NCBI RefSeq assembly: GCF_013122565.1
Contig: NZ_CP053258.1
DNA: 64,000 nucleotides
From: Escherichia coli
Lineage (GTDB): Bacteria; Pseudomonadota; Gammaproteobacteria; Enterobacterales; Enterobacteriaceae
Strand: one strand, 5' to 3'
Both the position numbers and the translations under genes were made by a program. The first letter of the stretch is position 1, and each line of letters opens with the position of its first letter. Below the pieces are notes generated by a model. The model saw only the letters and a program-made list of their open reading frames with translations, had not been told where the DNA came from and did no database searches. Below are positions 12,949 through 20,009 of this stretch, piece by piece.

Positions 12949-12976
12949 GCCGGATGTGCTGCGCTTATCAGGCCTA
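12949..12976. repeat. REP-like (repetitive extragenic palindrome) element
   Basis: gccggatgtgctgcgcttatcaggccta resembles the E. coli REP consensus; lies between convergent genes. Confidence 0.6.
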
Positions 12977-13000
12977 TATAACCCCTGCAATATATTGAAT

Positions 13001-13585
13001 TTATTGTTTTTGTACCCCAGCAGGCATGAACGGCCACTCAAGAAACTCAACAGCAACCGTTGATGTCAGCCAGACCCCGTTTTCCGCTTGCCAGAAAGGG
13101 AGGCCTCGTTTCGCCATTTCCTGTGCTTTGACGGTTAAAATAACCGGCGATCCGTGTCTTGCTCCCACTTTGCGTGCCGTTGCTTCATCAGCAGAGAGAT
13201 GTACGTAGTGACGCTCACCTGCAATCAGCCCCTGTTTTTTTATCTCGTCAAGGAAACGGCTTGCCGTACCGTGGTAGAGAAACTGTGGCGGTGTTTTTTC
13301 GGCAAAGGAAATAGCGACCTGCGAAGTCGAATGCCCCTGAACCGCGCGGATGCACCTACCATCACTGGAATAACTAAAACGCTTTTTATCGCTGGTGGCG
13401 ACCACGGTATCCAGCAATGCACGGGTTAACCGCTTGCCCGCTTTTTGGGCACAAAGTATGAGCTTATCGATATCCGCCCATCCTTCACGGTCCAGTACGA
13501 TACCTATCGCCTCCGGTTTGTGTCGGAGGACAAAACTTAAAAACTTGCTCGTATCCGCCAGCTCTTTTTCGTTGTACTTTGCCAT
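13001..13585 (-). CDS. kptA: RNA 2'-phosphotransferase (Tpt1/KptA family)
   Basis: ORF 13001..13687; likely start [25 protein letters not shown] at 13585; conserved VLRH and HGT motifs. Confidence 0.85.
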
Positions 13586-13822
13586 CTCGTTTTCGACCCT
13601 GGATTTTCTGTTTTTATTTACTGATGTCATTGTCACTGGGTTTATGAATTTTCTGCAACTCAATCCTGCGCAGAACCTTTTCCACACAGCGTAATTTTTC
13701 CGCTATGCAAAAAACGCATAGCCAGAAACATACTTGCATTTTCCCCATACCCACATGGCTGATAAGGTTTTTCAGCTCCAGGAATTTTCCTGGCTCAAGC
13801 AACACACAAACACAAAAAAACA

Positions 13823-14518
13823 ATGGGGATTGTTATGACACAACAAGGGGATGCTGTAGCCGGGGAGCTGGCGACAGAAAAAGTAGGCATTAAAGGATAT
13901 CTGGCTTTTTTTCTTACCATAATCTTTTTTTCCGGTGTTTTTTCCGGAACAGACAGTTGGTGGCGCGTTTTTGATTTTTCCGTGCTGAACGGATCGTTTG
14001 GGCAGTTACCTGGTGCGAATGGAGCCACCACCTCATTTCGCGGGGCGGGTGGCGCGGGGGCTAAAGATGGCTTTCTCTTTGCGCTGGAGCTGGCACCGTC
14101 AGTCATTCTCTCTCTGGGGATTATTTCAATTACCGATGGTCTTGGTGGATTACGCGCCGCGCAGCAGTTAATGACGCCTGTGCTAAAACCGTTGTTGGGC
14201 ATTCCAGGGATCTGCTCGCTGGCGCTGATCGCTAACCTGCAAAACACTGATGCCGCCGCCGGTATGACCAAAGAGCTGGCGCAGGAAGGGGAAATTACCG
14301 AACGCGATAAAGTGATTTTCGCCGCATATCAAACCAGCGGTAGCGCCATTATCACCAACTACTTTTCTTCCGGCGTCGCGGTGTTTGCCTTTCTGGGCAC
14401 GTCCGTAATCGTACCTTTAGCCGTCATCCTGGTGTTTAAATTTGTCGGAGCCAACATTTTGCGCGTCTGGCTTAACTTCGAAGAACGTCGCAACCCAACG
14501 CAAGGAGCACAAGCATGA
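13823..14518 (+). CDS. yjiH: inner membrane protein YjiH (nucleoside-recognition-domain family)
   Basis: 231-aa hydrophobic ORF; 4-nt overlap with yjiG; synteny kptA-yjiH-yjiG-iadA. Confidence 0.7.
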   Translation: MGIVMTQQGDAVAGELATEKVGIKGYLAFFLTIIFFSGVFSGTDSWWRVFDFSVLNGSFGQLPGANGATTSFRGAGGAGAKDGFLFALELAPSVILSLGIISITDGLGGLRAAQQLMTPVLKPLLGIPGICSLALIANLQNTDAAAGMTKELAQEGEITERDKVIFAAYQTSGSAIITNYFSSGVAVFAFLGTSVIVPLAVILVFKFVGANILRVWLNFEERRNPTQGAQA

Positions 14519-14976
14519 CAACTCAGGTCCGCAAAAACGTCATGGATATGTTTATCGATGGCGCGCGCCGTGGCTTTACTATCGCCACGACCAACCTGCT
14601 GCCAAACGTGGTGATGGCGTTTGTCATCATTCAGGCGCTGAAAATTACCGGCCTGCTCGACTGGGTGGGGCATATCTGTGAACCCGTAATGGCGCTGTGG
14701 GGATTACCCGGTGAAGCGGCAACCGTCCTTTTAGCCGCATTGATGAGTATGGGCGGCGCAGTCGGTGTTGCCGCCAGTCTGGCAACCGCTGGCGCATTAA
14801 CCGGTCACGATGTCACCGTTTTACTGCCCGCGATGTATTTAATGGGCAACCCGGTGCAAAATGTCGGTCGCTGCCTGGGGACAGCCGAAGTGAATGCCAA
14901 ATATTACCCGCACATCATTGCCGTCGGGGTGATTAACGCATTGCTGTCGATCTGGGTTATGCAGATTATTGTTTAA
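14515..14976 (+). CDS. yjiG: inner membrane protein YjiG
   Basis: 153-aa hydrophobic ORF overlapping yjiH stop (ATGA). Confidence 0.7.
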   Translation: MTTQVRKNVMDMFIDGARRGFTIATTNLLPNVVMAFVIIQALKITGLLDWVGHICEPVMALWGLPGEAATVLLAALMSMGGAVGVAASLATAGALTGHDVTVLLPAMYLMGNPVQNVGRCLGTAEVNAKYYPHIIAVGVINALLSIWVMQIIV

Positions 14977-14988
14977 CAAGGAGTTACC

Positions 14989-18193: not shown

Positions 18194-19024
18194 ATGTCTA
18201 TGCCATTAAGCAATGTCCTTCAGAGTCAAATTATTACAGATAATCACTTCCTTCATCACCCAAAAGTCGACAATGAGTTAACACGTAAATATGAACGTGC
18301 ACGCCTGGATACGGAAAATATCTATCTTCTGCCTCTTGCTCGTGGCAATAACCATAATTACGATGGAAAAAGCGTTGTCGAAATTAGAAAACTTGATATT
18401 AGTAAAGAGTCCTGGCCATTTAATTATGTGACAGAAGCATGCAGAGAATCCGATGGTATTACAACAACAGGACGTATGCTCTATCGAAACTTGAAAATCA
18501 CCTCAGCTTTAGACGAAATATATGGTGGTATATGTAAAAAGGCGCATGCTGCTACAGAATTAGCAGAAGGTTTACGGCTAAATTTATTTATGAAGAGCCC
18601 TTTCGATCCTGTTGAGGACTATACAGTTCATGAAATAACATTAGGCCCTGGTTGCAATGTTCCTGGTTATGCCGGAACCACGATAGGATATATTTCAACC
18701 CTTCCAGCTTCTCAGGCAAAAAGATGGACCAATGAGCAGCCAAGAATTGATATCTATATTGATCAGATAATAACTGTCTCAGGGGTAGCAAATTCTTCCG
18801 GATTCGCCCTTGCCGCATTACTTAATGCTAATATTGAGATGGGAAATGACCCAATCATTGGTATAGAAGCCTATCCCGGTACCGCGGAGATCCATGCAAA
18901 AATGGGATATAAAGTTATCCCCGGTGATGAAGATGCGCCACTCAAACGCATGACTCTGCAACCGTCATCTCTTCCAGAACTGTTTGAATTAAAAAATGGT
19001 GAATGGAATTATATTGGTAAATAA
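18194..19024 (+). CDS. yjiC: uncharacterized protein YjiC
   Basis: 276-aa ORF after about 660 bp of very AT-rich intergenic DNA shared divergently with iraD. Confidence 0.7.
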   Translation: MSMPLSNVLQSQIITDNHFLHHPKVDNELTRKYERARLDTENIYLLPLARGNNHNYDGKSVVEIRKLDISKESWPFNYVTEACRESDGITTTGRMLYRNLKITSALDEIYGGICKKAHAATELAEGLRLNLFMKSPFDPVEDYTVHEITLGPGCNVPGYAGTTIGYISTLPASQAKRWTNEQPRIDIYIDQIITVSGVANSSGFALAALLNANIEMGNDPIIGIEAYPGTAEIHAKMGYKVIPGDEDAPLKRMTLQPSSLPELFELKNGEWNYIGK

Positions 19025-19124
19025 CTACCAGGAACAATGAGTACTAATATTCAGGTTATACAGATATTTAAACAATACCCTGCAATTTACAAAATAATAC
19101 TCATTGCGACTTCTTAATTTAAGA

Positions 19125-19153
19125 AAGCGCAAGGAACGTTTACCCTTGCGCTT
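19125..19153. terminator. bidirectional stem-loop between convergent yjiC and uxuR
   Basis: aagcgcaagg / ccttgcgctt perfect 10-bp inverted repeat with 9-nt loop, followed by attataata. Confidence 0.5.
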
Positions 19154-19164
19154 ATTATAATAAG

Positions 19165-19938
19165 TCAGGCGTCGACTTTATCCAGCGGCCATGAATCAAA
19201 CAGATAGCCGTCAAAATAAATATCGTCAACGTTCGAGAATTCCAGCAGACGTTGCTTAACGTTTTCCAGATGCTGCCACATTGCCAGCTTCGCCGCTCGG
19301 GCATCTTTTTTGATTAACGCGGCGAGGATCTGTTTGTGATCGCCCAACCACTCTTTGCGATACAGGCTGTCATCCAGATGGCTGTGCAACTGGATCCACA
19401 TTGGATTGTTTTCCCGCCACTGCCAGGACTGACGGAATAACTCCACCAGCATGCTGTTATGCGTTGCTTCAGCAATGGCGAGATGGAACTGCATGTCACC
19501 GCTTTCGCTGCTACCCGGCGCGCTGGAAGCCAGTTCACGCTCTTCCAGTTGCAATGCCTGACGCATTTTGACGATATCTTCGCGGGTAGCCTGCAGGGCG
19601 GCAAACTCGGCGATGTTACTTTCCAGTAACTGACGCGCCTGTAACAGCTCAAAAGGACCCGCATCATTGCAGACGTTGGCATCCGGACTGTCTGTGTTGT
19701 GGCTGCCTGAGCTATCAAGAACATAGATACCGGCACCCCGGCGCACTTCCACCAGCCCTTTGATCTCCAGCATGATCAGCGCTTCACGTACCACCGTCCG
19801 CGTGACATCAAGCATTTCTGCAATTTCACGCTCCGGCGGCAGCCGTTCGCCAGGATTGTACGGCGTCTTTATGATCAGATCGCGGATCATCGCCCCGACT
19901 TCCTGGTAAGGTCTTTGCGCAGAGGTGGCAGATTTCAT
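19165..19938 (-). CDS. uxuR: GntR/FadR-family repressor of the uxu regulon
   Basis: 257 aa; HTH region ERLPPEREIAEMLDVTRTVVREALIMLEIKGLV; matches UxuR. Confidence 0.9.
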   Translation of the reverse strand: MKSATSAQRPYQEVGAMIRDLIIKTPYNPGERLPPEREIAEMLDVTRTVVREALIMLEIKGLVEVRRGAGIYVLDSSGSHNTDSPDANVCNDAGPFELLQARQLLESNIAEFAALQATREDIVKMRQALQLEERELASSAPGSSESGDMQFHLAIAEATHNSMLVELFRQSWQWRENNPMWIQLHSHLDDSLYRKEWLGDHKQILAALIKKDARAAKLAMWQHLENVKQRLLEFSNVDDIYFDGYLFDSWPLDKVDA

Positions 19939-19975
19939 GGTGTTGTGTCCGTTAGGTGCGGTTAATCAAATTTTT

Positions 19976-20009
19976 GCCGGATGCGGCGTGAACGCCTTAT
20001 CCGGCCTAC
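19976..20009. repeat. REP element
   Basis: gccggatgcggcgtgaacgccttatccggcctac matches the E. coli REP consensus; sits between uxuB and uxuR. Confidence 0.85.

Follow-up and report, generated by a model that had tools for sequence, protein, structure and literature searches.

An intact Y-type and a decayed Z1-type REP in a 64,000-nt segment of Escherichia coli DNA

Two sites in a 64,000-nt stretch of Escherichia coli DNA, hereafter the window, were assigned to the E. coli family of REPs (palindromic units) with an estimated probability of about 0.93. Site 2, between uxuB and uxuR, is a Y-type unit that is intact and occupies a fixed position, inherited vertically. Site 1, between iatD and kptA, is an old Z1-type unit that has lost its GTAG and half of its hairpin energy in this lineage. 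REPs are imperfect palindromes of 30–37 nt, preceded by GTAG, and are present in hundreds of intergenic copies. Both elements are of an already known kind, the uxuB–uxuR copy being the element of K-12, and their presence in itself matters little, REPs being the most familiar of the small repeats in E. coli. The identity of the two elements and the decay of site 1 rest on tests performed in this analysis; their roles at the RNA level are what we infer.

The RefSeq record of K-12 was searched for REP features and none was annotated. REPs of this strain were gathered directly from 224 kb of sequence, where 21 loci held 55 units, and a covariance model was built from the 37 distinct REPs in this sample. 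In the K-12 set, 96% of the cells in the helix of the model were paired and five pairs changed on both sides. Genuine K-12 units scored 28.7 to 60.3 bits, and mirror-strand matches and noise reached at most about 17 bits. Site 2 scored 60.3 bits (E = 3e-14) and site 1 scored 37.3 bits (E = 6e-8). As the latter score is within the range of genuine K-12 units and above the noise ceiling, site 1 was accepted as a REP. The corresponding nhmmer scores were 23.8 bits (E = 9e-7) for site 2 and 13.2 bits (E = 0.003) for site 1. The 13-mer TAGGCCKGATAAG occurred exactly twice in the window, at sites 1 and 2. When site 2 was used as the query, its Y part had near-exact copies at 39 or more places in the median genome; the Z1 consensus had a median of 21 places, with matches in 5425 of 5426 genomes. 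Across the 5426 genomes, 189,709 places were of the Y type, 145 of them on plasmids, and 133,639 were of the Z1 type, 85 of them on plasmids.

Both sites are extragenic, site 2 in a 214-bp spacer between tandem genes and site 1 in a 123-bp spacer between convergent genes. A preliminary description of this DNA had placed both at convergent gene ends. This is correct for iatD and kptA, but uxuB and uxuR are arranged in tandem, both on the minus strand. The flanking genes were otherwise as named there, its ‘adhesin’ being the inverse autotransporter IatD. REPs have been described as 3′-UTR-associated, with ∼40% situated between genes in tandem, ∼60% between genes that converge and about 1% between divergent genes (bioRxiv 10.64898/2026.03.23.713779).

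Site 2 is a canonical Y-type unit on the minus strand (19975–20009; GTAG-first sequence, GTAGGCCGGATAAGGCGTTCACGCCGCATCCGGCA), according to both an exact consensus match and the covariance model. The sequence GCCGGATGCGGCGTGAACGCCTTATCCGGCCTAC was present in the window as a single copy, at 19976–20009 and with no mismatches, and matched none of 100 shuffles. Inclusion of one flanking base yielded the full 35-nt unit, which had no mismatch to the Y consensus and carried the conserved GTAG at 20009–20006 of the minus strand. The predicted RNA fold, ....(((((((..((((....))))..)))))))., had an energy of −20.9 kcal/mol and a z-score of −4.6. Site 2 shares with REP y, as described, the GTAG, a 7-bp lower stem, an AA/GC internal mismatch and an upper stem of 4–5 bp (PMC8266576). 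The same 35 nt occur at the same position and in the same orientation in K-12 (NC_000913.3, 4554505–4554539), with no detectable difference between the two copies: they are the same element in different strains. Over the whole 231 nt compared, the uxuB–uxuR spacer of the window is identical to that of K-12. The spacer with site 2 was found in 5404 of 5426 complete E. coli genomes and, among four E. coli genomes compared, the two most divergent had two substitutions within the REP.

Site 1 (12948–12977) is a decayed Z1-type unit on the minus strand in the GTAG-first reading (ATAGGCCTGATAAGCGCAGCACATCCGGCA), identified using the Z1 consensus and the covariance model. It matches 26 of the 30 bases of the Z1 consensus, with four mismatches and no indel; nowhere else in the window were there fewer than 11 mismatches, and the best in 50 shuffled windows had eight. 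The site begins 70 nt after the stop codon of iatD (7637–12877, plus strand), identified from the ORF list and the RefSeq annotation of matching genomes. On its other side, it is 23 nt from the stop codon of kptA (13001–13585, minus strand, convergent with iatD), which encodes an RNA 2′-phosphotransferase and was identified from the ORF list; in strain A30, a 585-nt kptA is annotated at the equivalent position. Features of the E. coli Z1-type REP, a short class of 29–30 nt, that are recognizable in site 1 include the length, both stem arms, the AA side of the bulge and the short upper stem. By contrast, the tetranucleotide at 12977–12974 is ATAG and not GTAG, in all five of the iatD-bearing genomes compared. 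In addition, one pair of the lower stem is broken by a G–A mismatch (GCCTGAT versus ATCCGGC), and the bulge is AA/AC, with AC on the 3′ side where Z1 has GC. The hairpin energy is about halved, at −7.1 kcal/mol (z-score of −0.7) versus −12.9 kcal/mol for the Z1 consensus. In lacking the GTAG, site 1 was therefore classified as a decayed member of the family. The preliminary description had reported a canonical REP at 19976–20009 and a REP-like copy at 12949–12976; both proved accurate to within one base and far above chance.

We considered whether site 1 might instead be a chance palindrome, or the 3′ coding end of a K-12-type yjiJ left stranded beside kptA when the iatD segment was gained. 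We regard this as very improbable, and the sequence comparisons largely refute it. It is true that the hairpin of site 1 is no stabler than that of shuffled sequence, but its covariance score of 37.3 bits compares with noise of ∼10 bits, and the allele of strain A10 has a fully paired Z1 stem, with a hairpin energy of −13.7 kcal/mol. Similarly, site 1 shares 15 identical nt, TGCTGCGCTTATCAG, with the 3′ end of yjiJ in its K-12 allele, but the likeness ends with this 15-mer: the left flank agrees at only 4 of 30 bases and global alignment of the right flank scored below the shuffle mean. The likeness to Z1, by contrast, extends over the full 30 nt, taking in the TAG and both stem arms. A yjiJ relic or recombination joint at site 1, considered from a MAFFT alignment of the K-12 yjiJ coding end, was rejected, the flanks being unrelated.

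Site 1 is most likely a relic that neither moves nor functions; some function could be retained in lineages with an intact stem. Any change in the GTAG abolishes binding and cleavage by the REP-associated tyrosine transposase of E. coli, TnpA-REP (RAYT; YafM) (PMC8266576), and site 1 is accordingly predicted to be inert. On a small scale, it illustrates cleanly the loss of GTAG and of stem pairing by a REP at a fixed locus.

Related classes of element were also compared. BIMEs and REPINs consist of paired, inverted REPs, whereas both sites in the window are solitary: the covariance scan detected no second REP unit near either, the only additional match being the mirror strand of site 2 (17.2 bits). 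REPIN doublets are the form thought to be mobilized. BIMEs and REPINs consist of the same Y and Z units as the two sites; REP325, the BIME between yjdM and yjdN, contained alternating Y and Z2 units in our K-12 sample. Rho-independent terminators resemble both REPs in being GC-rich hairpins of intergenic DNA that is transcribed, but the U-tract that characterizes them is absent from the transcribed strand 3′ of site 2 (AAAAAUUUGAUU) and of site 1 (AUGUAGCGUU). A scan of the window against Rfam returned nothing at the gathering thresholds, and a tRNA scan of the window returned no tRNA.

No REP was detected elsewhere in the window using the covariance model with filters off, the next best match scoring 10.3 bits. 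Within 20010–64000, which covers the defence island at 23220–54060, nothing exceeded this score (E = 1.5), in agreement with the earlier observation that the island is free of REPs. The weight placed on that observation was not sustained. The island comprises nine genes, mostly abutting or overlapping, and has about four non-coding gaps (23220–24068; 40299–40521; 50196–50349, which is divergent; and 53881–54060). The 224 kb of K-12 had about 218 gene junctions, and a REP locus was present at about 21 of these. At this backbone frequency, we estimate that ∼0.4 REP loci would be expected in the island, with a probability of ∼0.7 of finding none. As so few loci would be expected even if the island were backbone, their absence is uninformative.

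It is accordingly unlikely that the absence of REPs from 23220–54060 meaningfully indicates a recent foreign origin and can serve to delimit the island. Genomic islands are reportedly poor in REPs, an idea from earlier work in Pseudomonas. Consistent with such an origin, the island has no REP above noise and REPs are very rare on plasmids. Further, a naive extrapolation from K-12, with one locus every 10.7 kb, would predict ∼2.9 loci in 30.8 kb, with a probability of ∼0.06 of finding none. However, REPs are extragenic and the usable gaps in the island number only about four, one of them of the divergent kind that holds ∼1% of REPs. Moreover, the breaks in homology at about 23219 and 54061 set the borders far more precisely, and site 1 is itself a REP within a variable segment. 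The iatD–kptA junction with site 1 was found in 623 of 5426 genomes (11%) and is absent from K-12, so site 1 is not strictly in backbone DNA. The proposal that these repeats mark the backbone is therefore supported insofar as REPs are chromosomal and rare on plasmids, but not for the segment containing site 1. Related enterobacteria carry similar REPs, such that DNA acquired from them would be indistinguishable by this means, and REPs of this family do not distinguish DNA native to E. coli from DNA that has long been resident. These data caution against using the presence or absence of REPs to define the borders of an island across some tens of kb, because packed islands leave almost no intergenic space, because REPs can occupy variable segments, as does the iatD copy, and because breaks in homology provide exact borders here.

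To return to site 2, the order of elements on the transcribed strand is the uxuB stop codon, a terminator-like hairpin, a promoter-like site, the REP and the uxuR ATG (19938). Both genes are on the minus strand according to the ORF list and RefSeq annotation: the stop codon of uxuB (20153–21613) is 143 nt upstream of the REP and the start codon of uxuR (19165–19938) is 36 nt downstream of it. The terminator-like hairpin (20096–20129, minus strand), identified in a consensus scan, has a 14-bp stem followed by TTTCGTTTTT and occurs 24 nt beyond the stop codon of uxuB. With respect to transcription it is upstream of the REP, of which it is not part. The σ70 promoter-like site (20043–20071, minus strand), identified by consensus scan only, comprises GTGCCA and TATAGT separated by 17 nt, with a TG before the −10 element. 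It matches 9 of 12 consensus positions; the scan yields 0.3 such sites per shuffled region.

If transcribed, site 2 would form a stable hairpin of −21 kcal/mol. By analogy with REPs elsewhere, we infer that this hairpin may act as a local barrier that shields upstream RNA from 3′–5′ exonucleases. It may also partly damp read-through into uxuR when uxuAB transcription continues past the terminator-like hairpin. REP325 has been reported to be a partly Rho-dependent terminator and a stabilizer of upstream mRNA (bioRxiv 10.64898/2026.03.23.713779). If the promoter-like site at 20071–20043 is used, site 2 would also be within the uxuR leader. It is possible, but somewhat doubtful, that site 2 is mainly an element of this 5′ leader that sets the stability or translation of the uxuR mRNA, and does not act on the 3′ ends of uxuAB. 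Such a role is suggested by the position of the REP, downstream of the terminator-like hairpin and promoter-like site and ahead of the uxuR ATG, and by the near invariance of the uxuB–uxuR spacer across divergent E. coli genomes. However, E. coli genomes diverge little, which may suffice to explain this conservation, the promoter was detected as a consensus match of a kind that also arises in shuffled sequence, and the 3′-UTR association described for REPs argues against a leader function. A mapped uxuR transcription start was sought in the literature and none was found in the accessible papers. That site 2 is a working part of the leader, possibly insulating the repressor gene from its target operon and setting stability or translation, is quite unlikely, and would derive from its location downstream of these two features and 36 nt before the ATG. 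Were it so, a REP would have a 5′-UTR role in place of the usual 3′-UTR role.

The presence of a terminator-like hairpin 3′ of uxuB leaves little for a REP to do for uxuAB. This hairpin was nearly unchanged in the four E. coli genomes, the two that diverge most having one substitution in its loop.

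The window is Escherichia coli chromosomal DNA. Its ~12.7–13.2 kb region matches iatD, an inverse autotransporter gene, and kptA in complete E. coli genomes, and its ~19.8–20.3 kb region corresponds to uxuB and uxuR, with matches in thousands of them. The gene order is that of K-12, reversed: yjiJ, kptA, yjiH, yjiG, iadA, hypT, iraD, yjiC, uxuR, uxuB and uxuA.

Consensus sequences for the Y and Z1 classes of REPs were checked against genome data. Near-exact copies of the Z1 consensus occurred in 5425 of 5426 complete genomes (median, 21 places per genome); for the Y part of the uxuB–uxuR query, the median was at least 39. 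The features used agree with the published class lengths (y, 35; z1, 29; z2, 37 nt), GTAG prefix and AA/GC bulge (PMC8266576). An nhmmer search of 224 kb of K-12 yielded 55 REP units, distributed over about 21 loci, and a covariance model was built on an alignment of 37 distinct K-12 REP sequences. The alignment supported the expected REP helix, with 96% of cells paired and both-side changes in 5 of 12 pairs. In K-12, genuine units scored 28.7–60.3 bits; mirror-strand images and noise scored about 17 or below.

The window was scanned with this model at full length, on both strands and with filters off. The uxuB–uxuR element (19975–20009, minus strand) scored 60.3 bits (E = 3e-14) and the iatD–kptA element (12948–12977, minus strand) 37.3 bits (E = 6e-8). 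The mirror strand of the former scored 17.2 bits and all other matches ≤10.3 bits (E ≥ 1.5); the scan thus revealed no third REP. Each element is a single unit and neither is a BIME. Each contains the head motif TAGGCCKGATAAG, of which the window has exactly two copies. Neither element is unusual: one is an intact and the other a decayed REP unit, each of a known kind.

The preliminary description had placed a canonical REP at 19976–20009, and this 34-mer proved to be a single copy with 0 mismatches; none of 100 shuffles matched. With one further base, the minus strand reads GTAGGCCGGATAAGGCGTTCACGCCGCATCCGGCA, a 35-nt Y-type REP. The same description assigned the element to convergent gene ends, which is incorrect: uxuB (20153–21613) and uxuR (19165–19938) are tandem genes of the minus strand, and in K-12, too, uxuA, uxuB and uxuR are all encoded on the same strand. 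On the transcribed strand, the uxuB stop codon is followed by a terminator-like hairpin (20129–20096; 14-bp stem and T-tract), an extended −10 promoter-like site (20071–20043), the REP (20009–19975) and, 36 nt further on, the uxuR ATG. K-12 has the same sequence over the 231 nt that span the spacer. Among the E. coli genomes sampled, the two most divergent showed differences at 5 positions; 2 of these fall within the REP, and neither is compensatory. The locus was found in 5404 of 5426 genomes. The element is an old copy, vertically inherited and fixed in position. In strain Res13-Lact-ER02-39, which shares the island, an IS1 lies between yjiC and uxuR (11612–12309 of its segment, L012); it is absent there in the window.

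In a recent preprint on REP325, REPs are described as acting locally in 3′ UTRs with context-dependent effects, being partly Rho-dependent terminators that also stabilise upstream mRNA, and as lying about 40% in tandem-gene and 60% in convergent-gene spacers (bioRxiv 10.64898/2026.03.23.713779). The predicted RNA hairpin of the uxuB–uxuR REP is strong (−20.9 kcal/mol, z −4.6). Its likeliest role would be that of a modest second barrier for transcripts escaping the uxuAB terminator-like hairpin. Alternatively, should the promoter-like site be active, the REP may be a structured part of the uxuR leader.

The iatD–kptA element, previously described as a REP-like copy at 12949–12976, is indeed a decayed REP. 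Its minus-strand reading, ATAGGCCTGATAAGCGCAGCACATCCGGCA, has 4 mismatches and no indel relative to the 30-nt Z1 consensus; the next-best place in the window had 11 mismatches and the best in 50 shuffled windows 8. Its score lies inside the genuine K-12 range and above noise, making it a clear but degenerate member. It lies 70 nt past the stop codon of iatD (7637–12877, plus strand) and 23 nt past that of the convergent kptA (13001–13585, minus strand). All five iatD-bearing genomes compared carry ATAG instead of GTAG, and changes to GTAG are not tolerated by the E. coli REP transposase (PMC8266576). In strain A10, the Z1 stem is fully paired (−13.7 kcal/mol, z −4.2); in the window lineage, a T-to-G change disrupts one pair of the lower stem (−7.1 kcal/mol, z −0.7; consensus, −12.9). 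We read this element as an immobile, decaying copy that most likely has no function. MAFFT aligned 15 of its bases (TGCTGCGCTTATCAG; 12957–12971) identically with the 3′ end of the K-12 yjiJ allele (around 13540–13555 of the K-12 segment, L001). An origin from yjiJ was rejected: the flanks are unrelated, with 4 of 30 matches on the left and an alignment score below the shuffle mean on the right, and the K-12 15-mer is part of a coding sequence whose homologue in the window is the end of its own yjiJ gene. The identity is either coincidental or, at most, a possible microhomology.

The iatD–kptA junction is present in only 623 of 5426 genomes; the others, including K-12, match solely from 13034 on. 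The iatD segment (7427–13033) is a presence/absence polymorphism. One strain has the same defence island without iatD, indicating that the two differences arose independently. KptA has 194 residues in the window versus 184 in K-12, and the final 10 codons differ; the break lies at 13033/13034. In one O157:H7 genome, iatD and kptA are both annotated as frameshifted.

REPs had been proposed as backbone markers that are absent from the defence island. The absence was confirmed: a search for extra copies at 24–54 kb found nothing above 10.3 bits, and the inverted repeats in the island gaps form simple hairpins with no relation to REPs. The general idea has support from the rarity of plasmid-borne places (145 of 189,709 for Y-type; 85 of 133,639 for Z1-type), but within this window it adds nothing. 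The iatD–kptA REP lies in a segment that most strains lack, showing that REPs can occupy variable DNA. The island, whose borders are marked by breaks in homology near 23219 and 54061, comprises nine large genes, mostly abutting or overlapping, with about four non-coding gaps, one divergent. In K-12, about 21 of about 218 gene junctions hold a REP locus, predicting ~0.4 loci in the island on the assumption that it is ordinary backbone; on that basis, we estimate the probability of finding none at about 0.7. The preliminary description was right about the identity of both elements but drew more from REP distribution than it can bear. The island replaces K-12 nanC, the fim operon (fimB to fimH) and gntP; the Z2-type REP of the K-12 fimH–gntP spacer (L001 1784–1820) is consequently missing from the window.

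The left island junction is common to only 9 of 5426 genomes. The island holds Druantia type III (DruE3, 40522–46845; DruH3, 46836–50195), Zorya type II (ZorA2/B2/E2, 50350–53880) and a four-gene cluster encoding a UvrD/NERD helicase (24069–26183), a 2113-residue DruE-like helicase with an HNH tail (26180–32521), a 1638-residue type IIG/DrmMI-like methyltransferase (32521–37437) and a 952-residue DrmD-like SNF2 helicase (37440–40298). The right end (56300–64000) resembles an integrative-element remnant, and the covariance-model scan found no REPs there. It contains 63 nt (57035–57097) matching part of a tRNA-Leu from another genome, at which ARAGORN called no tRNA, a RadC-family gene (60338–60811) and several ORFs without an NCBIfam match. 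Between yjiL and yjiK, where K-12 has ytiA alone, the window carries a gene for a 720-residue pentapeptide-repeat protein (2909–5071) in a stretch of 39–40% GC.
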